Shown here: one piece after another, positions 1,426 to 62,730 of the stretch
Numbering within the stretch: the first letter of the stretch is position 1
Layout: each line of letters starts with the position of its first letter
NCBI GenBank assembly: GCA_965230295.1
Contig: OZ246001.1
Location: 160,001-224,000 of the forward strand
Length of the DNA stretch: 64,000 nucleotides
Source of the DNA: Marinicella sp.
GTDB lineage: Bacteria; Pseudomonadota; Gammaproteobacteria; Xanthomonadales; Marinicellaceae
Direction: 5' to 3'
Notes under the pieces: generated by a model
Seen by the model: the letters and a program-made list of their open reading frames with translations, nothing else
Database searches by the model: none
What the model was told of the DNA's origin: nothing
Translations under genes and position numbers: made by a program

Positions 1426-2924
1426 CAGCCGATGGCTCCTTCTAATGAGATGTCTAACAAGGCTTTTGCTTCAACGGCAAACTCCATGGGTAATTCTTTG
1501 AACACTTCTTTACAGAAGCCGTCCACGATCAGTGAAATGGCATCTTCTTCCGTGATGCCACGTTGTAAACAGTAATTCAATTGGTCTTCAGAGATTTTTG
1601 AAGTGGTGGCCTCATGTTCGAGTTTGGCCGTCATGTTGGCCGACTCTGTGTATGGAAATGTATGTGCGCCACATGACTTACCGATCAACAAAGAGTCACA
1701 CTGGGTAAAATTCCGAGCATTGTCTGCGCGCTTGGCCACCCTAACCAAACCGCGGTAGGCATTTTGGCTTTTGCCCACTGAAATGCCTTTGGAAATCACT
1801 GTACTTTTGGTGTTTTTACCCAAATGGATCATTTTGGTGCCGGTATCGGCTTGTTGGTGGTTATTGGTCAACGCCACCGAATAAAACTCTCCTCTTGAAC
1901 CATCACCTCTCAGGATACAGCTGGGGTATTTCCAGGTGATTGCCGACCCTGTTTCTACCTGGGTCCATGAGATTTTTGAATTCTTGCCCAAGCAGTTTCC
2001 TCGCTTGGTCACAAAGTTATAAATGCCACCCTTGCCATTTTCATCTCCCGGGTACCAGTTTTGAACGGTCGAATATTTGATTTTGGCATCATCCATGGCC
2101 ACCAGTTCAACCACAGCAGCGTGTAATTGGTTTTCATCTCGCATCGGTGCTGTACAACCTTCTAAATAGCTCACATAGGCACCTTCCTCAGCCACAATCA
2201 AAGTTCTTTCAAATTGACCTGTGTTGATGGCATTGATGCGAAAGTAGGTGGATAACTCCATAGGACATCGCACCCCTTTGGGGATATAAACGAAAGAACC
2301 GTCACTGAATACCGCCGCATTCAACGCCGCAAAATAGTTGTCTTGTGCTGGCACCACAGAGCCCAGGTATTTTTTAACCAATTCAGGATGGTCATGTACC
2401 GCTTCTGAGAACGATGAAAAAATCACCCCCACTTTCTCCAATTCAGCTTTGAAGGTGGTCCCTACAGAAACAGAATCAAACACGGCATCAACCGCTACGC
2501 CTGCCAAGCGCTCACGTTCATGCAAAGGCACACCCAACTTGTCATAGGTTTCCAGCAGTTTAGGGTCTACTTCATCCAATGACTTCGGTGCATTTTCTTT
2601 GTTGGCATTGGGTGAAGAATAGTAAGAAATCGCCTGGAAATCGATTTCCGGAATCTTTAACTTGGCCCATTCCGGCTGCTTCATGTTTTGCCATTTTTGG
2701 AAAGCATCCAACCGGTAATCTAACAACCATTGTGGCTCTTCTTTCTTTTCTGATATCAATCGGATGGTGTCTTCATCCAACCCGGGCGGGATGGTGAAAG
2801 ACTCAATGTCCGTGACAAAGCCTTCTTTATAGCCTTGTTTGGCCCTGGCCTTAACGGCTTGGTTTTCTTCTACCACTTCAGCTTTTTGGTTTTCTACTTC
2901 TTGACTCATGCTATCTAAACTCAA
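1425..2924 (-). CDS. sufB: Fe-S cluster assembly protein SufB (likely start ATG 2909)
   Basis: [38 protein letters not shown] motifs. Confidence 0.97.
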
Positions 2925-3349
2925 GGTTTGATTTGTAAGGTGATTTTTTTCTTTTCATCCAAAATATCACTGACCGTGACGCTTTCTAATGCATTCAAAA
3001 TCACTTGATTGACTTTTTTCATACCAGCACTCATGTAACAATCCTGGGTCAGATGACAGGCTGTATCATCATCAACACATTCGGTCAAAGACATGCCACC
3101 TTCCATGGCCACAATCACTTCGTTTAAGGTGATCTCTTGCTTTCTTTTGACCAGAAAATAACCGCCAGTGGCACCTCTCTTAGAGTCCAACAAACCGGCT
3201 TTTTTCAGTTGTTTAAGTATTTTGCTGACTGTGGGTGTTTCTAGCCCAGTCACTGATGCCACAAAATCAGCAGATGCTGGCAAATCTGACTTTTTCAAAG
3301 CCATGATCACCATAAAGGCATATTCAGTTAATTTGGACATTTTTATCAT
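2921..3349 (-). CDS. Rrf2-family SUF system transcriptional regulator
   Basis: [18 protein letters not shown], three Cys in the C-terminal half; first gene of the suf operon. Confidence 0.9.
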
Positions 3350-3428
3350 CGCGCGGATTATAGCATCATATAGGACTTATTTGGTACTATATGATGCCAA
3401 TTCAAGGGATAATACCGACTAAACCACG

Positions 3429-4661
3429 TCAGCGTTGATTAAAATGAATTTTTACCTGAAAGGTATCCACATGATTGTGATCAAACTGTACCAGCCACCC
3501 CAAACGCTCACACATGCGCTGAGCTATTATGGTCCCGACACCATAACCAGAACCAGAACCATTTTCAGATGATGCCTTGTCCCGAGGGTTTTCAATGACA
3601 ACAGAGTCATTGTTAAGGTAACAATAAACCACTTTTTCACTGCCGTGTTGAATGGCATTTTTCAGTAAATTACCCACCACAACCATGAAAACATCGGCAG
3701 GTGCGTTGATCAGAACCGGACCTCCATCTGCTTCTGTCAATGTAATTGTATGTGCTGGATAACTGAGTAAAAATTCTGCTTTTATGGCTTTCATACAAGC
3801 CATCATGTCACAAACTTGATCAGACCTGATCACGTCACTGGAAAGCCACAAGAACGCTTCGGTGATTTGCTTCATTTGCCGGATTGAGCGATTCAATCGA
3901 TCAATCACTGTACCTGGGTCGTAATCAGCCTTTTTTTTATACAATTCCAGTAACTCAAGGGCGTTTTGGGCAATTTGGATGGGAGATCTGAGTTCATGGC
4001 TGACACCCCGATTGAATTCGAACTCACGCTGCGCGGCGGTTTGCGCTTGGGCTATGGATGTTTCTAATTGTTTGGCCAAAACCCCAACTTCATCACTTTG
4101 AAAATCAGCAGCAAAACCCTTGGGTAGGTCTTGTTGATCATCTTGCAATTGTTCGGTTAGTTTTTTCAATGGAGCCAAAGTTTGTCTGGCCAACCTGTAA
4201 GCCACAATCACTGTCAAAAAAATCAACACCAGTGAAACCACCAAGACTGTTAATAACAAGTCGTTGCGACTGGTTCGCACTGCCAATAAACCACTCACAT
4301 CGTAACTGATGAAGTAATCAGTTGTATCTGGAGCCAGTTGATTGCGCAACACAAACACGGCTCGATCATCATCAAAGTATTCATAAACACCTGGTTTTGA
4401 ACCCACAATTTTTTTTAAGGCAGGAGGCAATTGGTCAATGCCCGGATATAATTTCATTTGTTGGTTGGTCGGTTGCCAATTTGATTGTTCATTTTCAGCA
4501 AGGCTTTCATACAATAGTTGTTCGCTGCGCAGTAAATTAATAAAGACCTGGTCTTCAGTGATGTATACCATCATCATGACCATGACAGTAAAGAACAGAC
4601 ACAAAGTCAATGCAAGGCCAATCATGGATCGCTTGATGCGCCTGGCTATACTAAGCTTCAT
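3429..4661 (-). CDS. Two-component sensor histidine kinase
   Basis: Two TM segments, HAMP, H-box SHELRSP, N-box NLLKNAIQH, GYGVG; start moved to ATG 4661, overlapping the regulator stop. Confidence 0.9.
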   Translation of the reverse strand: MKLSIARRIKRSMIGLALTLCLFFTVMVMMMVYITEDQVFINLLRSEQLLYESLAENEQSNWQPTNQQMKLYPGIDQLPPALKKIVGSKPGVYEYFDDDRAVFVLRNQLAPDTTDYFISYDVSGLLAVRTSRNDLLLTVLVVSLVLIFLTVIVAYRLARQTLAPLKKLTEQLQDDQQDLPKGFAADFQSDEVGVLAKQLETSIAQAQTAAQREFEFNRGVSHELRSPIQIAQNALELLELYKKKADYDPGTVIDRLNRSIRQMKQITEAFLWLSSDVIRSDQVCDMMACMKAIKAEFLLSYPAHTITLTEADGGPVLINAPADVFMVVVGNLLKNAIQHGSEKVVYCYLNNDSVVIENPRDKASSENGSGSGYGVGTIIAQRMCERLGWLVQFDHNHVDTFQVKIHFNQR

Positions 4662-54133: not shown

Positions 54134-55474
54134 TCAGGATTCTACCAACAACAGTTTTAATCTTCTTTGGGTATAGACCCACGCCACCAAAGAACTGGCC
54201 AGAACAATGGCCACGATGGCCCAAAATATCGAATACAACCCATAATCCATCAGCTCAATCAACACATAAAAAGCCGCAATCGGTAGTACCATCTGACGCA
54301 AGATACCAATCACCAATGGAAACAAAGGTTGTTTGACCGCCTGTAACAAAGCATTGGAACAAAACAGCATCATATAGCCATAAAAGGCAAAGGCATCGGC
54401 CCGGAGGTAATACACCCCCACATCAACAATGGTTTGGCTGTTGCTGAACTGGGTCATCATCAAGGGCGATAAAAAGATCATGGTCGGAATGAACACCACC
54501 GAGATCATGGCCGCCACTTTCAGTGATTTATAATAAATCTCCTTAACCCGCTCGATGTTGCCCGCACCATAGTTCTGACCCACCAAGGCCATCACCGCTG
54601 CATTTAAACCCAAGGCCGGCATCAACAACAACTGTTCAATCCGAATACCCACTGAATAACCAGCCACCGGACCATCTCCGAATTGTGAGATGAAATAAAT
54701 GGTGATGAAACCACCAATGATGATGGTCAACATGTTCATACTGGCCGGCATGATTTGGGCCAACAGTTGTTTCCAATGGTCCCAATTAAAAGCAGGCTTA
54801 GACCAGGCATTGACTTCACTTTTTAACACCATCAACAGGTAGATCGAAGACCCGGCTTTGATGATCAAAGTGGACCAGGCCAAACCGGCCACACCAAAAT
54901 CCAACACAAAAATAAACAAGGGATTCAACAACCAATTGGCAAAGAAGCCTACAATCAAAACATTGCGGTAGCTGACGGTGTTGCCATGGGCGATCAAGGC
55001 ACCGGCAAAACAACTGGTTAAATTAAAAAACACATTACCGATCAGAATGATCGAAGTGTAGTCCCAGGCCACCCCAACGATGGTCTGATCTTCACTGAGG
55101 TAATTCAACAGATCCAAAGCATAAAGCCACCCCAACAGCAAAATAACCGCCGAGAGAAACCAGGTGATGCCATGCGAGCAATTGATCCAGGCAATCACAT
55201 TGTCCCGGTTCTTCTTACCCACATCAGCTGCCACCATGGCAGAGGTTCCACTTTGTAGGCCCATCCCCAAAGCCAAAAACAAGGCGAACACAATGCTGGC
55301 GATCGATAACCCTGACAAAGCCACATCTGAGATCTGCCCGGCAAACCAATTGTCAGTGAGGTTGTATAAGGTATTGAACACCATGCCCAACGCCGCCGGT
55401 ATGCCGATGCGGATCATGTGTTGGTACACCGAACCTCGGGTCAAGTCTTTTTCTTCAGCAGTGGCTGCTTTCAT
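54134..55474 (-). CDS. MATE family efflux transporter
   Basis: DLTRGS, YNLTDNWF, GVAGLAWST, VGQNYGAGN. Confidence 0.93.
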   Translation of the reverse strand: MKAATAEEKDLTRGSVYQHMIRIGIPAALGMVFNTLYNLTDNWFAGQISDVALSGLSIASIVFALFLALGMGLQSGTSAMVAADVGKKNRDNVIAWINCSHGITWFLSAVILLLGWLYALDLLNYLSEDQTIVGVAWDYTSIILIGNVFFNLTSCFAGALIAHGNTVSYRNVLIVGFFANWLLNPLFIFVLDFGVAGLAWSTLIIKAGSSIYLLMVLKSEVNAWSKPAFNWDHWKQLLAQIMPASMNMLTIIIGGFITIYFISQFGDGPVAGYSVGIRIEQLLLMPALGLNAAVMALVGQNYGAGNIERVKEIYYKSLKVAAMISVVFIPTMIFLSPLMMTQFSNSQTIVDVGVYYLRADAFAFYGYMMLFCSNALLQAVKQPLFPLVIGILRQMVLPIAAFYVLIELMDYGLYSIFWAIVAIVLASSLVAWVYTQRRLKLLLVES

Positions 55475-55525
55475 ATTGGGATGGTCAAGTAAGGTTGAAA
55501 ATAATTGTATCAGATTGCTGCTAAA

Positions 55526-55550
55526 CGTTCACTGAGCGAAGTCGAAGTGA
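55526..55550. repeat. REP-like palindrome
   Basis: cgttcactgagcgaagtcgaagtga, same family as 16942 and 42212. Confidence 0.7.
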
Positions 55551-55578
55551 TTCACCTGTTTGCAGTTAATCGTAGACT

Positions 55579-56067
55579 TCAATTCGATCCATTGGTCACT
55601 TCACGGTGGTAAAAATCCTTGATACAACTTAGACAAATATTGGCTTCATCGCTGGCAATAATTACTCCAATATCTTCAATAAAAGGAGACTTCTTACAAA
55701 AAGAGCAGTTATGCTCATCAAACTCCAACGCAGCTTCATCACATTCCTTAATCGCATCAGTTTTACTGTAATCGGTTTTTAACCAACATTTGCTAATTCC
55801 GTTGTAATATTTTTCTGCATATGCTTTGACCTCTGATACCGAGTCTCTTTCAATGATGGCTGTGATGAGCTCCCACTCCATGTCGCAATGAGCTAAATGA
55901 AATTTTTGAGTTTCTAAGTGAAAACAAATTGCCAATCTGGGCACTTTGCCAAGCCATTCACCACCTACATTGATGCTTTTATTTTCAACATACACTATTG
56001 AATCATCCACATCCGCATATTCGATTACATACGAAGGGTAAAACAAGACTAAAGGCGGTTTACCCAT
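55579..56067 (-). CDS. Protein with C-terminal ClpX-type C4 zinc finger
   Basis: CSFCKK-X-ICLSC; lower-GC gene. Confidence 0.75.
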   Translation of the reverse strand: MGKPPLVLFYPSYVIEYADVDDSIVYVENKSINVGGEWLGKVPRLAICFHLETQKFHLAHCDMEWELITAIIERDSVSEVKAYAEKYYNGISKCWLKTDYSKTDAIKECDEAALEFDEHNCSFCKKSPFIEDIGVIIASDEANICLSCIKDFYHREVTNGSN

Positions 56068-56178
56068 AATTACTTACTTAAACACATGGTTGAAAGAACT
56101 TAATACAGTGGCTGTGGACATTTTTTTGTTTGATTGATGGGTATGAATATAATTCTAGCAGAAAACCCAATGGTGGCC

Positions 56179-56706
56179 CTAACCCTGATACCAGTTTAAG
56201 ATCACTTGGGCCGATTCTTCAGCCGTGAGTTGTCCTGTATCAAGGACCAAATCGGGCTCACAAAACTTGGGGAAGTCAAAACACCCGTCGGTTTTGAGTT
56301 GTTGGTATAAGTCCGGATCGGTTAATTTGCCAAATTGATGCCTGCTGTCTGCACCCATTCTGTTGACCAGTTGATCTTCTGAGCACTGCAATTCAATGTA
56401 ATATACCGTACCCTTTGCTTGGGCAATATGAGACGTCACCTTTTTGATCAATTCAGGATCAACCGTATTTTCTGGATTGAAAGTGAAAACAAAGGACTGT
56501 TGTTGGTCCGCAGCTGCTGCAAAAGCAGCCAACCACATGTCGGCCCTCAGTTGCTTGAATCCAGGTGTACCAAACTCAAACAGCGACTTGACCGCATCAA
56601 CCACCAGGTGATTGTGAAACAACGGCATGGCCAACGCTTCACTAACCAGCGAACCGACGGTGTATTTACCAGCGGCTGCTGGTCCATAGATAAACAAAAC
56701 GTCCAT
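56179..56706 (-). CDS. P-loop kinase/AAA-family protein (shikimate-kinase-like)
   Basis: YGPAAAGKYT, LFHNHL, SRHQFGKL; start moved to ATG 56706. Confidence 0.8.
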   Translation of the reverse strand: MDVLFIYGPAAAGKYTVGSLVSEALAMPLFHNHLVVDAVKSLFEFGTPGFKQLRADMWLAAFAAAADQQQSFVFTFNPENTVDPELIKKVTSHIAQAKGTVYYIELQCSEDQLVNRMGADSRHQFGKLTDPDLYQQLKTDGCFDFPKFCEPDLVLDTGQLTAEESAQVILNWYQG

Positions 56707-56817
56707 GTAGATATTGTGAAAAGTTATGTTTCTAAAAGCAAGCGTAAATAACAAACAGTTACAGGTTATTAATTTTTGTCATTGCGAGCGCAGCGCGGCA
56801 ATCTCCAAAACTTTTGA

Positions 56818-57160
56818 GGCTTCCTAAAGGGGCCTACTTTTGGTCGCCTTAGATTAATTGCAGGAATATGAAATCAAACCAATTGGACAATGAAACCAGT
56901 TTCAATGGATCATCAATAGATCAAACACCAACTGCATGGATCCCGGATCAAGTCCGGGATGACGAAAAAGTAGTAACCATTACATCAAAAAATCTTTCTC
57001 CGTCATCCTCGGGCTTCCTTAAGGGACCTACTTTTGGTCACCTTAGAGTAATTGCAGGAATATGAAATCAAACCAATTGGACAATGAAACCAGTTTCAAT
57101 GGATCATCAATAGATCAAACGCCAACTGCCTGGATCCCGGATCAGGTCCGGGATGACGAA
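56818..57160. repeat. Tandem duplication (~149-bp unit, 194-bp period) containing REP palindromes (BIME-like)
   Basis: Near-identical units at 56818-56966 and 57012-57160, each ending ggatcccggatcaRgtccgggatgacg. Confidence 0.9.
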
Positions 57161-57174
57161 GATGACACAGGCAT

Positions 57175-57208
57175 AAAAAAACCCACAACACCTAACGATG
57201 CTGTGGGT
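57175..57208 (-). terminator. Intrinsic terminator after the slipin gene
   Basis: Minus strand acccacagca-...-tgttgtgggt followed by a T run. Confidence 0.8.
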
Positions 57209-57224
57209 CACAGGTGGACGAACA

Positions 57225-58364
57225 TCAAACATTCAATTTGATATTCTCCTTGGTCAAGCCATCCAAACCTCCGAAAACGGTGATGTTGCTGACTTTGTCG
57301 GCCACTTTTTCCAAAGTTTCCAACTCTTTCAAACGTCTCAAAGTTTCGCTTTGATCCATTAACTTTGCGGTGTTCAACAAAGAACGGGTCGCAGCGGTTT
57401 CTTCGCGGCGTTTGATGATGTTGGCTTTAGCTGCTTTTTCGGCCTCAACCACTTGATTCAAAATGGTTTTCATCTCGCCAGGCAAGATGATGTCTTTGAC
57501 ACCCACTTCGACCAAGGTCAAACCAAATTCAGCCACTTTTTTGGCCACAAAACCACGCACAAAAGTGTCAATGGCTTCTTTATCTGCCAACAAAGCGTCC
57601 AACACTTTGGTACCGATGGCTTTTCGCAAGGCCAACTGCAAGGCGTTGTACAAGAATTCCTTGTAGTTCGCCAACTCAGTCACCGCAGTCACCACGTCGC
57701 TTACTTTAAAAGTGGCAGACAAGTTAACCCTTAAGCTCACTTTGTCTTTGGTCAAGATTTCCTGACCGGCCACTTCCATGGTTTGCGCACGGGTATCAAC
57801 GACTTCCACTGCGACAGATTGGTTGTAATTCCAAAAACCGTATTTACCGGCTTTCAAAGTACGTACCAACTGACCATCGATGAACAACAAGCCGACTTGC
57901 TGGTTGGTCACCTCTTTGGTCACCATACCTGCAGACAAGACAGAGGCTTTGGCCGCTTTGGCCAACACCTTCATGTCTTTGGCAGACACTTCGATCTGCT
58001 CAGTGACATTGATGCGTCTGACTTCCACCTGAGCCGCGGTGTTCCAAAACCACTTTTCAGATTGAGGTTTAATCAAATCACTGAATTGACCATCTACATA
58101 GATCAAGGCCACCTCGTTTTCATCGGTGTTGATCACTGTGTAGAAATCTTCGCACAAGCTTGCTTTGTTCCTCAACAACACTTTGACGTCTTTCTGGGTG
58201 ATTTCAGTCGCGGTGATGTCGAATAAACGCACTTTCATGCGGTTACCGAAATCCCAAAACTGGTGTACACCGGCTGTCAAAACAGCTGTCAATTGTCGAT
58301 CGCGAAACAACAAAGCACGTTCGTTGTCAGCAACCACTATTCTTTTTCTAAAAATCATTTTCAT
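57225..58364 (-). CDS. Slipin-family SPFH (band 7) protein
   Basis: Repeated ERALL/GLL beta units, GQEILTKDKVSLRVN, GVKDIILPGEMK, RREETAATRSLLNTAKLM. Confidence 0.92.
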   Translation of the reverse strand: MKMIFRKRIVVADNERALLFRDRQLTAVLTAGVHQFWDFGNRMKVRLFDITATEITQKDVKVLLRNKASLCEDFYTVINTDENEVALIYVDGQFSDLIKPQSEKWFWNTAAQVEVRRINVTEQIEVSAKDMKVLAKAAKASVLSAGMVTKEVTNQQVGLLFIDGQLVRTLKAGKYGFWNYNQSVAVEVVDTRAQTMEVAGQEILTKDKVSLRVNLSATFKVSDVVTAVTELANYKEFLYNALQLALRKAIGTKVLDALLADKEAIDTFVRGFVAKKVAEFGLTLVEVGVKDIILPGEMKTILNQVVEAEKAAKANIIKRREETAATRSLLNTAKLMDQSETLRRLKELETLEKVADKVSNITVFGGLDGLTKENIKLNV

Positions 58365-58379
58365 ATATCCTGTGCGAAT

Positions 58380-58527
58380 AGGAATGTTCTTGGGGCTTCA
58401 TTCACTTTTGTTGCAACAAAAGTGAAAGCGACCGCGGCAAACATGTGTTGAGTTTTCGCTCGCACCTTTCTGACACAGCTCCGCTGTGCCAACCAAGGTG
58501 GCTGGTCAATTTAGTCACAAGTTTTTC
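58380..58527 (-). repeat. Diverged copy E of the dispersed repeat, just upstream of the slipin RBS
   Basis: aggaatgttcttggggcttcattcacttttgttgcaacaaaagtgaaagcgaccgcggc. Confidence 0.85.
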
Positions 58528-58578
58528 CGTTAGCACTGCTAATTAAACTCAGTCATTAATAAAACCTCGTATATCGTT

Positions 58579-58601
58579 AAAAAATACACCTTCTTGGGTG
58601 T
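58579..58601 (-). terminator. Putative terminator at the 3' end of the large structured RNA
   Basis: Minus strand acacc-caagaa-ggtgt-attttttt-like (short stem). Confidence 0.45.
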
Positions 58602-58910
58602 TCTGTTCCATGCCTCTCGACATGGGACCGATGCCAGGACCTCCTGACATCGGCAAAGCTTCCTTTCTTTCACCTACCTACCACTGATACCAAGCCATCC
58701 TGATACCAGCCACTTACGCTCTCTCGCCAACCGCACCACCGCAGGCCATCCTGCGTTGGCTTTGATAGACTCAGGCTTAGACAAGCTCAACCATCGTCAA
58801 TCATGTGGAAGATCAGTCTCACGACCACCCAGTGGCCCATGAAGGGTTGTTCTGGTTCCACCAGGTCATGAAGTCACTCAAATCCTTGTGTGTCTGATAC
58901 GTCCTGAGCA

Positions 58911-59056
58911 AGAATGTTCTTGGGGCTTCATTTACTTTTGAAAAATCAAAAGTAAAAGCGCCCACTGCGAACATCTCTCATGTCTATGCCCTCAACTTTC
59001 TGACTCGGTTAATCCTCGCCAACCAAGTTGATGGGGCGAACTGAATTCAGTTCGCC
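58911..59056 (-). repeat. Diverged copy F of the dispersed repeat, inside the putative ncRNA
   Basis: agaatgttcttggggcttcatttacttttgaaaaatcaaaagtaaaagcgcccactgcgaacat. Confidence 0.8.
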
Positions 59057-59314
59057 TAGGTTTGTACCCTGACTTCAATCAGTGGTTTCTCAATTCGGCC
59101 CCAACGGCTCGAAAAGCAGACCAATGCTTCATTGGCAAGAAAGCATGCTGTCTGAGCCATGCCTTCCTGAGTGGTCGTTGTTAGTCGACTGCCTTGTCGT
59201 TGCTACATGTTGGTAGCAATGGGCTTCTCGCCCACCCAACTGAGACTGACCTGTGATGTTTAAAGACGTCACACGTCTGGCTTAGATAGGGCTCTCGCCT
59301 TGGTGCCTTTCGGC

Positions 59315-59388
59315 TGGTTTTTGAGCAGGAGTCGAACCTGCGACAAGCAAATTACAATGTTGCTGCTCTACCTCTGAGCTATCAATCG
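59315..59388 (-). tRNA. Degenerate tRNA-like element (TGT anticodon position, Thr-like), ending in CCA
   Basis: Minus strand: TA-GCTC-AGAGGTA-GAGC, GCAAC-ATTGTAA-TTTGC, GCAGG-TTCGACT-CCTGC, ...CCA; acceptor stem only 4 bp. Confidence 0.7.
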
Positions 59389-59459
59389 TCTTAGAGATGG
59401 ATTCGAACCACCGTATAATTAATCCTAAGTTAATCGCCGTACCACTTGGCTATCTAAGT
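59387..59459 (-). tRNA. Degenerate tRNA-like element (TAG anticodon position, Leu-like D arm, short variable loop)
   Basis: Minus strand: CTTAGA-TA-GCCAAGTGGTACGGC, ATTAA-CTTAGGA-TTAAT, GGTGG-TTCGAAT-CCATC-TCTAAG; no encoded CCA. Confidence 0.7.
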
Positions 59460-59592
59460 ACCCAATCACCTGGCATACACACCAATAAAACTGGCTGCAC
59501 CGGCCTGCCATCCAGAGACAGGTCCATAAGGGATTTGGATCCTTTGCCATCAATATTCACAACATGAATTTTGATGAAAATATTTCGGGCAT

Positions 59593-59681
59593 AAAAAAAC
59601 CCGATGGAATGACCTATCGGGCTTTACGAAAAAGATTCCTGAAAGGCCATTCAATGCCTTTCAAGATTTTTGAAGGGCATT
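59593..59681 (-). promoter_or_regulatory. Transcription attenuator (alternative hairpins plus intrinsic terminator at 59593-59622)
   Basis: Overlapping pairings 59670-59681/59653-59664, 59656-59664/59639-59647, 59644-59652/59607-59615 and terminator gcccgat...atcgggt followed by a T run. Confidence 0.75.
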
Positions 59682-59778
59682 AAATCAACTGCATACCACG
59701 CAGCACGTTCGAGTCATGACTCGGACATGTCGCTTGCCAGCTAGTGGCAATTTTTATGTTGAAATAATTTAAATTCAT
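59680..59778 (-). CDS. Putative leader peptide (32 aa) MNLNYFNIKIATSWQATCPSHDSNVLRGMQLI
   Basis: ATG..TAA ORF between the promoter and the attenuator; stop codon overlaps the first hairpin strand. Confidence 0.65.
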   Translation of the reverse strand: MNLNYFNIKIATSWQATCPSHDSNVLRGMQLI

Positions 59779-59823
59779 AATTTTATTTTTGTTGTGGTCC
59801 GAAGACCTGTTTCAATTAAGGTA

Positions 59824-59878
59824 GCGCATTCTACGCCGTTGTTTTTCGGAGTCAAGATATTTTTAACATTTTTTTAAC
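59824..59878 (-). promoter_or_regulatory. Stable-RNA-type sigma70 promoter
   Basis: Minus strand TTGACT-16-TAGAAT followed by a GCGC discriminator; A-tracts upstream (UP-like). Confidence 0.7.
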
Positions 59879-60070
59879 ATCATGCCGGCGCAGGCCGGGA
59901 TCCAGCCTCTTTAAGAAATTAATACAGTAAAACTTAAAACCACATAAAAACTCTTTCGCTAAACCATTGTAATTATTGATGTTTCATTCACCAAATTTAA
60001 TTTGCTTTTGACAATAAGACAGTGGATACCGTCCCCTGTTTTCACGAGGGGCAGGCTCTACGCCGGTCAT
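59878..60070. repeat. Degenerate REP-like pair
   Basis: catcatgccggcgcaggccgggatccag (~59878) and tggataccg...cgccggtcat (~60023-60070, interrupted). Confidence 0.5.
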
Positions 60071-60089
60071 TCGATGTTTCAAGAAAATC

Positions 60090-61157
60090 ATGATTCAAAA
60101 TCAAACCAGTGATAATAAAACTTGTTCTTGTATAATTGCGAACATGATGACAGAGTTCACAATTATGCTGGTCGGGTTTACCCTATTTAGTGCGACCTCC
60201 TTGCTGTTTGCCTATATTTTTTTCTTACCTAACCTTCAAAAAAGCAGTTTATCTAGACTGACTTGTACAGCCTTACTTGTGGGTTTATCAGTACTGCAAT
60301 GGTTTCATTACCAAACGTTAACTTCAGAATTTGATGCCTTACAAAACCGTATCTACTTGCTTTTTTTATTGTTTGTACCTGCCTGTTTCTATTATTTCAG
60401 CCGGTATGTGTTGTTTCCCAGTCTTGAAGCGAAATGGCATCATGCCCTTCACCTCATACCTACTGTTGTGGGTTTGTATTTGCCGACAGAAATCATCCCT
60501 CCCATTGCTTTTATGATTGGCTCTGCATATTGTTTGTGGTTCATACATCTGGTACTTAAATTACGTACCCAACAGAATCGATTTGCCATGGAGCGGTTCT
60601 TCTTTGGGATGTTCGCTTTGATGGCTGTCGGTGCTTTGGTTTTGGGTTTGATGTTACCTTATATTAATTCAATCATATTTTATACGGCTTATGGCAGCGC
60701 CATAGGTATAGCCATGTTGTTGGTCACCACAGCCATCATAATCTTCCCTGACATGCTCAATGACATTCAGCAAATGGCTGAGATGGCATATGCCAAAAGC
60801 AAGTTAAGTGGTATTGATGTGGCGGCCAAAAAAGCTCAGTTAGAAAAACTCGTGCAACAAGAGAGTGTCTATCAAAATGAAAAGCTGAGCTTGAAACTCA
60901 TGGCAGAAATGATCGATTTGTCAGTTCACCAGTTATCAGAGTTGGTCAATACGCAATATGGATTCGGGTTTTCTCAATGGGTTAGGATGCACCGAATCGA
61001 GCAGGCAAAAAAGTTGTTACTTGATGAACCCCAAACTTCCATTTTGGCTATCAGCATCATGACCGGCTTCCAGTCTCAATCTAATTTCTATGCGGCATTC
61101 AAGGAAATCACCTCTGAGTCACCCGGAAACTACCGAAAAAGAATGATCAAAGCGTAA
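60090..61157 (+). CDS. Membrane-bound AraC-family transcriptional regulator (start probably ~60145)
   Basis: Multi-TM N-terminus; HQLSELVN, RIEQAKKLL, GFQSQSNFYAAFK. Confidence 0.9.
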   Translation: MIQNQTSDNKTCSCIIANMMTEFTIMLVGFTLFSATSLLFAYIFFLPNLQKSSLSRLTCTALLVGLSVLQWFHYQTLTSEFDALQNRIYLLFLLFVPACFYYFSRYVLFPSLEAKWHHALHLIPTVVGLYLPTEIIPPIAFMIGSAYCLWFIHLVLKLRTQQNRFAMERFFFGMFALMAVGALVLGLMLPYINSIIFYTAYGSAIGIAMLLVTTAIIIFPDMLNDIQQMAEMAYAKSKLSGIDVAAKKAQLEKLVQQESVYQNEKLSLKLMAEMIDLSVHQLSELVNTQYGFGFSQWVRMHRIEQAKKLLLDEPQTSILAISIMTGFQSQSNFYAAFKEITSESPGNYRKRMIKA

Positions 61158-61240
61158 CAGGTTCCACTTCTATCATTCTGGAATACATGTATCACACTGA
61201 TTTAAAAGACATTTATATTTTTTTTGTTAAGGAAATATAA

Positions 61241-61720
61241 TTGCGGAAGCCAATTGTTTTATTAATCCATAAACTGTCCCACATTGATTCGAAGTTTGAA
61301 TCAAATTTAATTAACTTTAACACTATGAGGACAATTATGATTACTTCTATAACATACATCACTTACATCATCATCAGCGTTGGTATCACCGTTTTTGTTT
61401 CACGCACATTAAGCAGGAACGGAGAAATATATTTGATTGATGGCTTTAATGGCAATGTAGAACTGGCCAAGTCTGTTAACCACATGCTGGTGGTTGGCTT
61501 TTACTTAATCAATGTCGGTTTTGTATTGATGCGCCTACAAGCCAGCAACCAACTGATCAGTTTCGAATCCATGATCATTTATTTAAGCTCCAACATCGGC
61601 CTGGTCTTATTGATCCTGGGTGCATTGCACTTCTTTAACATGATCGTTATCCATAAGTTCAGAGAAAATGGTTTGAAAAAGGCTTACATAGCTGAACAAC
61701 GAAAAGGGTTGATGTCTTAA
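61241..61720 (+). CDS. Conserved small membrane protein (real start probably ~61337)
   Basis: RTLSRNGEIYL, SVNHMLVVGFYLINVG, LGALHFFN. Confidence 0.8.
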   Translation: MRKPIVLLIHKLSHIDSKFESNLINFNTMRTIMITSITYITYIIISVGITVFVSRTLSRNGEIYLIDGFNGNVELAKSVNHMLVVGFYLINVGFVLMRLQASNQLISFESMIIYLSSNIGLVLLILGALHFFNMIVIHKFRENGLKKAYIAEQRKGLMS

Positions 61721-61860
61721 CCTGGCTTTTAAATGTGGCAGGTAGCGAAGGATGGCCGGCCTGCCACTCATCAGCAAAGTCGACCGCTTATACAAAATGA
61801 CAACCCGATCTAGGTCTATTGGCTAAACTTGAACTCGAATCTACAACAACAGGAAACAAC

Positions 61861-62730
61861 ATGAAACGCCATCTATTCTTAATCACCATATTATTATTTT
61901 CATCAATCGCTTTCAGTGTCGCAGATCAATATGACTTCAAAGTCACTGTGCACGGCGAAGGTCAGCCCATGCTGCTGATCCCAGGCTTGAGTAACTCAGC
62001 TGAAGTTTGGGACAGCACGGTAAAAAAATACCAGGATCAATATGAAATGCACACTGTAACCCTACCCGGATTTGCGGGACAGCCGGCATTGGCTAACAAA
62101 GAAGGTTTTTTACATCAAGTCAGAGATCAGTTATTGGATTACATCCATGCACAAGACTGGAAAAAGCCGGTCATCGTTGGCCACAGCTTGGGCGGTTACG
62201 TATCCCTATTGATGGCCATCGAACGCCCCACCTTGTTTGACAAAATAGTCATTGTTGACGCAGTCCCCTTTATCCCGGCTTTAACCATGCCTGGCGCCAC
62301 TGAAGAAACATCTAAGGTGATGGCCGATGGTATGAAAGCACAGATGTCTCATCAAAACGAAGAGATGCGAGCGGCTTCTTTGAACATGATTCTGGCCACC
62401 ATGATCACCGATAAAGAGAAAATTAAATTGGCTCATCAATGGGGCATGGACAGTGATCCAGCTTCAGTCAATCAAGCCATGTATGAAATGATGACCCAAG
62501 ACATCAGACAGGAGATAGCTGTGATTGAATCACCGACCTTGATCATGGGTGCATGGATTGCCTACAAATCATTTGGTATGTCACATGAACGTTTGGCCAG
62601 CAGTTATGGTGCGCAGTATGAATTATTAAAAGGACACCAATTGGCGATCACTGACATCGGCAAACACTTCATCATGTGGGATGACCCAGAGTTCTATTTT
62701 GCTACAATGAGCGAATTTCTGAATCCATAA
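61861..62730 (+). CDS. Secreted alpha/beta hydrolase
   Basis: Signal peptide from ATG 61861, LIPGL, GHSLGG, KHFIMWD. Confidence 0.9.
   Translation: MKRHLFLITILLFSSIAFSVADQYDFKVTVHGEGQPMLLIPGLSNSAEVWDSTVKKYQDQYEMHTVTLPGFAGQPALANKEGFLHQVRDQLLDYIHAQDWKKPVIVGHSLGGYVSLLMAIERPTLFDKIVIVDAVPFIPALTMPGATEETSKVMADGMKAQMSHQNEEMRAASLNMILATMITDKEKIKLAHQWGMDSDPASVNQAMYEMMTQDIRQEIAVIESPTLIMGAWIAYKSFGMSHERLASSYGAQYELLKGHQLAITDIGKHFIMWDDPEFYFATMSEFLNP

Follow-up and report, generated by a model that had tools for sequence, protein, structure and literature searches.

The question raised by this locus is what is formed by a slipin gene of the SPFH (Band-7) family together with the tRNA-like elements and the long non-coding stretch that precede it in a Marinicella genome. 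The window analysed, to which all coordinates refer unless stated, is a stretch of 64,000 nucleotides from contig OZ246001.1. Every part listed in the initial annotation was found again, all on the minus strand and in the same order: a promoter, a leader ORF of 32 codons, an attenuator, two tRNA-like elements, a long non-coding stretch, the slipin gene and a terminator. The locus is probably a module of an SPFH/Band-7 protein and a tRNA-like RNA ("b7a-tRNA") of the kind associated with the RNA ligase RtcB, detached here from rtcB and forming one operon under a leader-ORF attenuator; we hold this reading with moderate confidence. The features, in their order on the minus strand, are as follows.

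59828–59880, minus: sigma-70 promoter with an A/T-rich upstream element (-35 at 59855-59850, -10 at 59833-59828)
59680–59778, minus: leader ORF of 32 codons, open in relatives, with its stop beside attenuator segment 1
59593–59681, minus: five-segment transcription attenuator (segment 1, 59681-59670; segment 2, 59664-59653; segment 3, 59648-59638; terminator hairpin and U-run, 59625-59593)
59457–59528, minus: 5' two-hairpin domain (helices 1 and 2; 9 of 20 pairs with a compensatory change)
59388–59459, minus: tRNA-like element 1 (RF00005 match at 59390-59458, 51.7 bits)
59321–59385, minus: tRNA-like element 2 (RF00005 match, 43.5 bits)
59289–59316, minus: two short GNRA-loop hairpins (helices 10 and 11), just 3' of tRNA-like element 2
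59058–59288, minus: first part of the long structured RNA (compensatory changes at 29 of 56 pairs; 92.6% of cells paired against 83.6% in shuffled alignments; 0 of 500)
58906–59057, minus: MITE-like repeat within the RNA, 152 nt (repeat copy 58912-59030), a gap in relatives
58579–58905, minus: second part of the long structured RNA (compensatory changes at 7 of 30 pairs), ending in a terminator-like hairpin at 58601-58586 and a T-run
58539–58568, minus: Shine-Dalgarno sequence (58568-58565) and five-codon mini-ORF (58556-58539, MTEFN and stop)
about 58380–58527, minus: second MITE-like insertion, separating the mini-ORF from the ribosome-binding site of the slipin gene (repeat copy 58382-58500)
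57225–58364, minus: slipin/SPFH (Band-7) gene; from the conserved start 57225–58358, 377 aa, beginning MIFRKR at 58358
57180–57209, minus: intrinsic terminator closing the unit (stem of 13 pairs, then a T-run)

The arrangement is not peculiar to this genome. In all 11 loci of the genus the slipin gene lies 3' of the conserved non-coding stretch, and among 80 orthologous slipin loci (40-92% identity) from many genera a tRNA or tRNA-like gene was found on the same strand within 1.5 kb upstream in 73. In 45 of the 80, RtcB is encoded no more than 6 kb away. The suggested link to RNA-repair loci is real; 11 of 16 loci in an even sample of the class resembled the 80 orthologous loci in this pattern, and the slipin gave full-length matches (40-49% identity, E down to 1e-118) to proteins at RtcB-bearing loci. 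The order of the parts is far beyond chance.

The same pairing has been described before. A tRNA-like gene with a Band-7/SPFH gene, usually beside rtcB, was predicted in silico as b7a-tRNA (Burroughs & Aravind, Nucleic Acids Res 2016, as cited in bioRxiv 10.1101/312249), and that preprint states that the prediction is without experimental validation. The likeness lies in a tRNA-like gene that immediately precedes, in the same orientation, the gene of a Band-7/SPFH protein, and the difference in the position of rtcB, which is 3.4 Mb away here instead of adjoining. The unit can therefore not be called an undescribed system as a whole, and the match to a described system that the initial annotation had named as grounds for giving up its reading was found in part. 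The locus appears to add regulatory and RNA parts to the b7a-tRNA RNA-repair system, as far as that system is outlined there; no description was found for three of its features, namely the five-segment attenuator, the two-hairpin 5' domain and the 3' RNA of about 590 nt.

Transcription would start at a single promoter. The site TTGACT-16-TAGAAT (59855..59828) has 10 of 12 consensus matches and is the sole promoter-like site on the minus strand in 57100-60100; its hexamers and the A/T-rich upstream element are kept in 12 of 12 aligned genus sequences. The leader ORF that follows is open in 14 of 14 aligned relatives, where it has 24-32 codons and a stop 0-5 nt before segment 1, with a conserved N-terminal motif M-[NK]-x-x-Y-F-N-I and a nested in-frame ATG four codons ahead of the stop. 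No clear Shine-Dalgarno sequence was found for the leader ORF in the genus. Across lineages, the stop codon abuts segment 1 in 32 of 35 cases, as against 8-16 of 35 in shifted controls, and an in-frame ATG within four codons before that stop, giving tiny ATG-led ORFs, occurs in 18 of 35 (controls, 0-2). One distant leader, L025, may begin at a promoter directly before segment 2.

The attenuator itself has three competing pairings. In the 2:3 hairpin and the terminator, 15 of 19 pairs show a compensatory change (93.6% of cells paired against 79.5% in shuffled alignments), and all aligned members have a U-run after the 4:5 hairpin. Both alternative duplexes are more stable than permuted sequences, the 3:4 antiterminator at -14.15 against -9.3 kcal/mol and the 1:2 duplex at -13.43 against -8.90 kcal/mol, with none of 5000 permutations as low in either case. 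A ribosome on the end of the leader ORF, which stops exactly where segment 1 starts, would cover segment 1, leaving 2 to pair with 3, the 4:5 terminator to form and transcription to halt. When ribosomes are late, scarce or damaged, 1 would pair with 2, while 3 would capture the loop of the terminator together with its 5' half, allowing RNA polymerase to read through. Minimum-free-energy folds of the full leader retain the terminator even with 1:2 formed, so that the switch is not visible from folds alone and the antiterminator must win kinetically. The trigger by translation stress proposed earlier would be the most likely reading of such an attenuator. Three other readings were considered and dropped: a kissing contact of the 2:3 loop with the terminator loop, better accounted for by the 3:4 antiterminator; a second small ORF from inside segment 2, whose frame is broken by one-base indels in three relatives; and a Shine-Dalgarno/anti-Shine-Dalgarno mimic formed by GGAAGG/CCTTCC.

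With segment 1 abutting the stop of a tiny leader ORF, the attenuator is a putative widespread switch, found also ahead of rtcB and, in other genomes, of tRNA arrays. Two covariance models, R1 and R2, were built, R1 without the rtcB leader. The initial annotation had rtcB as absent, which is true of the locus only: the single PF01139 match in the genome (G000:C1:3602648-3603763), about 3.4 Mb from the slipin unit, stands behind the same type of attenuator. In the 4.0-Mb genome R1 ranked the rtcB leader second (33.1 bits, E 0.0012; next match 24.7 bits), and of the 11 genus genomes with an RtcB ortholog, 10 carry the attenuator 45-390 nt ahead of that gene. Since rtcB and the slipin unit carry the same kind of attenuator, we propose that the two together form one translation-damage regulon. 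As 65 of 93 slipin loci had no attenuator match at E<=0.01, other controls must exist.

Several reported responses are of the same kind. In the Anabaena PCC 7120 trcR mutant, rtcB (77-fold), a slipin gene (42-fold) and the tRNA operon are derepressed together, and under translation stress the tRNA operon and rtcB are induced. The likeness of the TrcR regulon and its trn array thus lies in a co-induced tRNA array, rtcB and slipin-family gene; TrcR, however, is a protein repressor acting on promoter repeats and not an RNA attenuator, and the phylum is another. Tigecycline induces rtcB of A. baumannii above all other genes, and an SPFH gene is located within the rtc locus of P. aeruginosa. The nearest precedent for the switch is PA5471.1-armZ of P. 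aeruginosa (armZ is annotated "RtcB-like"), where, according to reviews, a short leader ORF and terminators downstream of it admit an RtcB-family gene when ribosomes are impaired; compared by description only, the present case differs in being a conserved five-segment RNA family, with a leader ORF often of two sense codons, that serves slipin units, rtcB and tRNA arrays. Apart from PA5471.1-armZ, no attenuator for slipin, b7a-tRNA or rtcB was described in the literature searched, a coverage too limited to prove absence.

The RNA read through would consist of the 5' two-hairpin domain, two tRNA-shaped modules, the GNRA hairpins and a long 3' domain with a weak terminator, beyond which the mini-ORF and then the slipin mRNA would follow. 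Model R3 of the 5' domain has matches at E<=0.01 in 54 of 93 slipin loci, without exception in the orientation of the slipin gene, a figure that rests on locus-scale E-values, strand and position. Its reach at genome scale is poor: at E<=1e-3 it found a single copy in the present genome and, in 150 other genomes, one match at a contig end.

Both tRNA-like elements score above the RF00005 gathering score of 29, and ARAGORN calls element 1 and misses element 2. They differ from ordinary tRNAs, as had been noted. In element 1 the acceptor arms are constant while the body type differs between species, a long variable arm being present or absent, and the anticodon varies. Element 2, the most conserved part in distant genera, has highly conserved D and T arms and a variable anticodon triplet, with only 4-5 acceptor pairs in place of a seven-pair acceptor stem and with no conserved CCA or discriminator context. 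Anticodon calls for one and the same element differ among close species, in many loci ARAGORN gives "anticodons" of two or four bases or with A34, and the shape of the anticodon loop is preserved while the triplet drifts. Neither element closely copies another of the 41 ARAGORN-called tRNAs of the genome, element 1 included in that number. For the 5' TTAGA of element 1 there are two possible partners, the 3' end of the element itself and a near-identical TCTAA that follows the GNRA hairpins; RNAalifold picks the distant TCTAA, and the arms hardly vary. On visual inspection, distant loci showed hairpins similar to the GNRA pair.

Punctuation by tRNA shapes is known as a means of RNA processing, and the modules could mainly be signals at which RNase P or RNase Z cuts, setting free a stable slipin mRNA as well as the long RNA, which would have no role with the protein. 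They do sit between separately conserved RNA domains, and a weak terminator parts the RNA from the slipin gene. Such a function leaves unexplained, however, why the modules recur with Band-7 and RtcB at the frequencies given above (73/80 and 45/80 loci) and why the loop shape is kept over a drifting triplet, and as the whole explanation we consider it unlikely. Processing of this kind is compatible with a b7a-tRNA module and does not exclude it.

Alternatively, the elements could be working spare tRNAs, as in stress-induced tRNA arrays, that top up decoding when housekeeping tRNAs are cut, with slipin as a co-regulated passenger. The same attenuator type does drive long arrays elsewhere with ordinary anticodons by ARAGORN, the Anabaena array is induced by translation stress, and the Rfam tRNA threshold is exceeded twice. 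The short acceptor stem of element 2 and its missing CCA/discriminator context argue against spare tRNAs, as do anticodons that vary between close species and are often of two or four bases or A34, the lack of any near-copy among the other called tRNAs, and the conserved 5' domain and 3' hairpins that flank the elements; such a role is improbable.

RtcB-linked genes are reportedly associated with conflict systems. The mimics could be decoys or sensors for anticodon nucleases or other ribotoxins, soaking up toxin or reporting damage while the cage sequesters them, which would agree with variable anticodons in a retained loop geometry and with the sponge role proposed for the Anabaena array tRNAs. 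No nuclease or toxin gene was found beside the unit among the ORFs inspected, and with one or two mimics per transcript only high expression would make an effective sponge; decoys or sensors seem a distinctly poor prospect.

The non-coding segment 59320..58580 is structured, as had been supposed, with compensatory changes at 22 of 58 and 29 of 56 predicted pairs and none of 500 shuffles as high, and species of the genus share 75-83% nucleotide identity over about 800 nt, with invariant blocks. A hairpin and T-run stand at the matching position of the RNA 3' end in 12 of 12 genus sequences, and the mini-ORF block, including ATGACTGAGTT, is invariant in the same number; locus L041 has a different mini-ORF at the same place. 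The non-coding segment, initially given as about 730 nt, is thus real, except that 152 nt of it are a multi-copy MITE-like insertion: the repeat has 43 matches in the genome, its own place included, and a contig of a relative joins 58905 directly to 59058. The copy of the RNA in this genome tolerates a MITE insertion. tRNA genes are common integration sites, and with MITE-like insertions in the stretch it might be taken for decayed DNA, tRNA pseudogenes and remnants of integrated elements making merely a long 5' UTR, but this is very improbable in view of the identity and invariant blocks within the genus and the same part order in many genera, and is already contradicted by the covariation counts, with dozens of compensatory base-pair changes.

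A sequence profile (nhmmer, genus alignment) found in distant loci the tRNA-like part only and one weak leader match (E 0.011), and the strongly co-varying 3' RNA of roughly 590 nt could not be traced by it beyond the genus and two relatives, L040 and L041. The initial annotation had pointed to GOLLD and ROOL, a kinship for which no Rfam match was obtained. Neither these nor other known large RNAs of Rfam 15 (OLE, HEARO, raiA and others) matched at E<=1 in 55000-62000, where the matches at that threshold were tRNA, YrlA and one chance match on the opposite strand, and no large-RNA family was found in the relatives' loci at E<=0.01. YrlA scored 35.1 bits, where its gathering score is 69, and the matches run across the T arm of mimic 1 into the D arm of mimic 2; we therefore take them as general tRNA likeness, and identity with YrlA was rejected. 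A search of metatranscriptome runs returned small shares only. Portions of the slipin gene and of the RNA core are covered by short contigs of relatives, drawn from four such studies, which is not proof of transcription; the gaps and the depth of this coverage carry no information.

The protein carries Pfam Band_7 (PF01145, 1.3e-31, residues 151-322). An AlphaFold2 model (pLDDT 81.3) predicts three N-terminal beta modules, the SPFH domain and a long helix, with an SPFH fold match of Z 17.9 and rmsd 1.1 Å over 104 residues. The proposal of a membrane SPFH scaffold did not hold up: no transmembrane stretch was found in the slipin, the highest Kyte-Doolittle mean over 19 residues being 1.28, and with no predicted membrane helix the protein is expected to be soluble. 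It probably builds a soluble ring or cage, like other SPFH proteins, and while tRNA and rRNA are being repaired or protected, this cage would serve to hold the tRNA-like RNA or to present it. The Salmonella rsr-yrlBA-rtcBA system likewise combines a tRNA-mimicking non-coding RNA (YrlA) and a scaffold protein (Rsr, Ro60) in an RtcB context; the scaffold here is SPFH and not Ro, and no Ro60/TROVE/Rsr (PF05731) match was found in the genome (97.9% complete).

The vault particle pairs a cage-type protein, the major vault protein, with a small structured vault RNA. Only the major vault protein aligns with the slipin over residues 5-360 (9bw5_A, chain residues 272-715; Z 12.1, 248 residues), at a high rmsd of 10.9 Å and 12% identity. 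The predicted slipin may resemble it in the sequence of beta-repeat modules, SPFH-like "shoulder" and long helix, and in an assembly with RNA as we infer it here a cage-type protein would again be paired with a structured RNA; it differs in having three repeats where the major vault protein has nine. A wider view, which we put forward only tentatively, is that a widespread RNA switch reading ribosome occupancy of a leader ORF, often of two sense codons, may define a translation-damage regulon of Gammaproteobacteria comprising rtcB, tRNA arrays and the Band-7 unit. As the main cargo of the regulon one would expect a multi-domain RNA, 300 to about 900 nt long and with tRNA mimics at its centre, in a soluble vault-like SPFH cage, a possible bacterial counterpart of vault and Ro ribonucleoproteins.

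RtcB is among the genes most strongly induced by translation poisoning, and little is known of how the damage is sensed outside the RtcR/sigma-54 systems. The locus offers a simple, mutable candidate sensor of ribosome failure, in which a leader ORF and a terminator are joined by three competing pairings, and it bears on a Band-7/tRNA-like partner module of RtcB that was predicted and is reportedly so far without experimental test. Where the predicted b7a-tRNA was a single tRNA look-alike, it is widened here to a large multi-domain RNA with co-varying pairs, of which few are known in bacteria, and this RNA together with a predicted soluble SPFH protein of vault-like layout makes a concrete candidate for a bacterial cage ribonucleoprotein.

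The set of features that had been noted for the slipin unit, slipin being a Band-7/SPFH protein, was confirmed, with every part lying on the minus strand. The layout of the operon is as follows.

59855..59828, minus strand: sigma-70 promoter (TTGACT-16-TAGAAT)
59778..59680, minus strand: leader ORF of 32 codons
terminator end at 59593, minus strand: attenuator of competing hairpins and a terminator, with a variable spacer after it
59528..59457, minus strand: two-hairpin 5' domain
59459..59388, minus strand: tRNA-like element 1 (mimic 1; Rfam tRNA model 51.7 bits, called by ARAGORN)
59385..59321, minus strand: tRNA-like element 2 (mimic 2; Rfam tRNA model 43.5 bits, missed by ARAGORN)
directly after element 2, minus strand: two GNRA hairpins
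from the GNRA hairpins to a terminator-like hairpin at 58601..58586, minus strand: long non-coding stretch
58568..58539, minus strand: Shine-Dalgarno sequence and 5-codon mini-ORF (MTEFN stop)
58358 (conserved start) or 58364 to 57225, minus strand: slipin gene (Pfam Band_7, 1.3e-31)
57209..57180, minus strand: strong terminator of the unit
58382-58500 and 58912-59030: MITE-like repeat copies in the operon

The mini-ORF block with its Shine-Dalgarno sequence (58539-58568) had identical nucleotides in 12 of 12 sequences, even at synonymous sites, and the hairpin that follows it ends at the slipin ribosome-binding site. Possibly the block serves as a second point of control, at the level of translation.

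When 40 related genomes were searched at the DNA level, ten from the genus carried the promoter-to-59058 stretch at 75-83% identity and three more had parts of it; the sequence was again conserved at 58906..58627. In all 11 loci retrieved, the slipin gene follows downstream (71-92% amino-acid identity). Long invariant blocks with variable helices between them make up the genus alignment. RNAalifold and pair counts were applied to 14 sequences, 12 from the genus and two from relatives with a diverged long RNA (L040 and L041). Compensatory changes were seen in 22 of 58 pairs of the 5' domain, mimics and hairpins (97.5% of cells paired vs 90.0% after shuffling), in 29 of 56 pairs of the next 230 nt (92.6% vs 83.6%), and in 7 of 30 pairs of the last part, which forms two hairpins with similar GGAUGG-type loops. 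For most pairing measures the observed values were reached by 0 of 500 shuffles, and slid controls fell to 31-46% paired. The RNA holds no ORF of more than 51 codons. Because it is conserved in the genus, changes in a compensatory manner and contains no such ORF, the large structured RNA proposed in the initial annotation is real, and its conserved length after the mimics is about 590 nt, leaving out an inserted repeat.

Repeat copies at 59057..58906 and approximately 58527..58380 lie outside the conserved RNA. The repeat has 43 matches in the organism's own genome, counting the query's own place, and is of a MITE-like type, roughly 70-150 nt long and with a hairpin at its centre; many matches were found in genus relatives too. 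Both insertions are absent from the relatives, and in a metatranscriptome contig of one relative position 58905 is joined directly to 59058, i.e. without the insertion. The operon is still present despite the two copies that landed within it; in locus L018 a copy occupies yet another position in the RNA. Just past the slipin terminator, at 56818-56966 and 57012-57160, are two 149-nt direct repeats that are 95% identical, have a spacing of 194 nt and each include a GC-rich palindrome, probably representing a further family of small mobile repeats.

Across genera, conservation is highest in mimic 2. It has almost unchanging D and T arms and an acceptor stem of 4-5 pairs, and its anticodon triplet varies between species with the shape of the loop retained. 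Mimic 1 has constant acceptor arms and a body whose type changes between species. No close copy of either was found among the other ARAGORN-called tRNAs of the genome (41 calls, element 1 included). The 5' acceptor strand of mimic 1, TTAGA (59454-59458), has two possible, near-identical TCTAA partners, one at its own 3' end (59390-59395) and one in a segment past the GNRA hairpins (59282-59287); pairing with the latter would close both mimics inside one long-range helix, and one sequence (L019) carries a compensatory change in favour of this long-range pair. Outside the genus, the long 3' domain was detected only in L040 and L041, in more diverged form; in other loci the slipin spacer measures 200-550 nt. 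A covariance model of the two-hairpin domain 5' of the mimics (R3), seeded with the genus, L040 and L041 only, matched 54 of 93 slipin loci at E<=0.01. These matches were all on the slipin strand, 310-700 nt upstream of the gene, and included five loci without an ARAGORN tRNA, while the opposite strand gave matches only at E 0.37 and 0.88. The RNA is therefore more than a tRNA look-alike.

Slipin orthologs are patchy, being present in 16 of 299 other genomes of an even sample of the class, and same-strand tRNA-model matches lie upstream in 11 of these 16 loci. The comparison was extended to 80 slipin loci of named public genomes (Lysobacterales, Pseudomonas, Competibacteraceae, Methylococcaceae, Cellvibrionaceae and others). 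A same-strand ARAGORN tRNA or tRNA-like gene was located within 1.5 kb upstream in 73 of them, many of the calls having 2- or 4-base 'anticodons' or A34 anticodons, and RtcB lay within 6 kb of slipin in 45, mostly directly downstream. Long tRNA arrays occurred in about nine of the 80; in several gammaproteobacterial genomes (loci L052, L066, L115, L129, L130, L137 and others) arrays of up to about 25 tRNA genes stand between attenuator and slipin, paralleling the stress-induced L-arrays of cyanobacteria. The 2016 abstract of Burroughs and Aravind is said to present SPFH/Band-7 modules with 'a novel tRNA-like molecule' as putative scaffolding cofactors. [quoted passage not shown] A 2026 paper also reports an SPFH gene of P. 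aeruginosa lying within the rtc locus. Since the pairing of Band-7, b7a-tRNA and RtcB was already predicted in 2016, the claim of an undescribed system fails for this core pairing, and the locus is a variant of the predicted module. A Y RNA system was rejected, as YrlA scored 35.1 bits vs a threshold of 69 and a TROVE protein was not found.

The genus leader contains three segments, with pairing of 1:2 or 2:3, followed by a terminator (4:5). A covariance model of this attenuator (R1) was built from a seed of 14 sequences with the rtcB leader left out. When the whole 4.0-Mb genome was searched, the slipin leader scored 86.4 bits and the rtcB leader came second with 33.1 bits (E 0.0012), the next match reaching at most 24.7 bits. 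After one iteration with the rtcB leader in the seed (R2), the same two were the sole strong matches (69.2 and 51.9 bits; next 27.5). The gene rtcB, which had been taken to be absent, is present in this genome; a 320-aa ORF without Pfam or NCBIfam match directly follows it (2740-3702 of the rtcB locus L021, G000:C1). The attenuator precedes the slipin unit in 14 genus genomes and lies 45-390 nt upstream of the RtcB ortholog (81-100% identical) in 10 of the 11 genus genomes having one; it was not found before the RtcB paralog of 62-63% identity. This second RtcB without an attenuator match occurs in seven genus genomes; G004, G012, G013 and G017 have it together with the attenuated ortholog, and in G003 the ortholog has no match before it. 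A third attenuator copy was seen in the latter relative (L140, G003:C7:57300-60800, positions 260-800), before three tRNA-model matches of 110-130 nt (54.7-58 bits), none called by ARAGORN. Each carries about 40-55 nt inserted at the place of the anticodon loop and encodes its CCA end. These resemble tRNA mimics of an intron-bearing or split type in the same regulon; a 622-aa ORF without Pfam match and an ORF with weak HEAT repeats follow.

Same-strand attenuator matches at E<=0.01 were obtained in 28 of the 93 slipin loci, 13 of them outside the seed, and were missing in 65. In clusters that open with tRNA arrays or rtcB, the attenuator is the 5'-most element of them all. Among 150 other genomes of an even sample, six gave matches at E<=1e-3, four of them slipin-bearing; the DNA downstream contained tRNA arrays, a tRNA-like gene or the slipin unit, and two matches resemble ordinary gene-end terminators. 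Of 19 pairs in the 2:3 hairpin and the terminator, 15 showed compensatory changes (22 aligned members). The 3' arm and loop end of the 2:3 hairpin are complementary to the 3' end of the terminator 5' arm and its loop start. This 3:4-type duplex had a native mean of -14.15 kcal/mol vs -9.3 with swapped partners (43 distinct sequences; 0 of 5000 permutations as low), and the result was unchanged with the own genus cut to one sequence. Segment 2 likewise has its complement in the 28 nt upstream (-13.43 vs -8.90; 0 of 5000 permutations as low).

In 32 of 35 lineages segment 1 starts right next to a stop codon (8-16 in shifted controls), and 18 of 35 have an in-frame ATG at most 4 codons upstream (controls 0-2). 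The leader ORF is often merely ATG, one sense codon and the stop; in the genus it is longer (24-32 codons), is open in 14 of 14 and has a conserved Y-F-N-I motif near its start. The simplest reading of these sequences is that masking of segment 1 by the leader ribosome would control read-through. With a ribosome stationed where the leader ORF ends, the 2:3 and terminator form would be favoured; with no ribosome there, the 1:2 and 3:4 antiterminator form would let transcription proceed, so that the operon is proposed to respond to a translation shortfall. Minimum-free-energy folds retained the terminator in both states, and no obvious Shine-Dalgarno sequence was found before the genus leader ORF. 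The proposed response fits the physiology of other organisms. In Anabaena, a trcR mutant showed derepression of rtcB (77x), of a slipin-family gene (42x) and of the latter's upstream neighbour (71x), and translation stress releases the targets of the TrcR repressor, a tRNA operon among them. Tigecycline induces rtcB more than any other gene in A. baumannii, and an unnamed gene directly downstream of rtcB was co-induced 252-fold. For P. aeruginosa armZ, annotated as 'RtcB-like', the review literature describes leader-peptide control with proposed attenuation on ribosome stalling.

An AlphaFold2 model of slipin from a 14-sequence alignment (pLDDT 81.3) has beta modules at 1-50, 73-117 and 145-188, an SPFH domain at 190-293 and a 60-residue helix. 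Foldseek and VIA-align ranked stomatin, HflK/C, prohibitin, erlin and flotillin at the top (Z up to 17.9), mostly ring or cage complexes as judged by entry titles. Major vault protein alone aligned over residues 5-360 (9bw5_A, Z 12.1, 248 residues, rmsd 10.9 Å). No 19-residue window reached transmembrane-level hydrophobicity (maximum 1.28), and the membrane-bound slipin of the initial annotation is accordingly not predicted. Given its ring- and cage-forming SPFH kin, the vault alignment and the lack of a transmembrane window, a soluble cage or ring is plausible. Gene linkage suggests a contact between slipin and the RNA. The first interpretation, a translation-stress-induced module of RNA and slipin, holds in outline, without its undescribed status, membrane-bound slipin and absent rtcB.

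Neither the attenuator family nor the 5' RNA domain nor the long 3' RNA was found described in Rfam 15 or the literature searched. The worth of the locus lies in these three: a proposed ribosome-sensing attenuator family common to the slipin unit, rtcB and tRNA arrays, a conserved 5' RNA domain, and a long co-varying 3' RNA.
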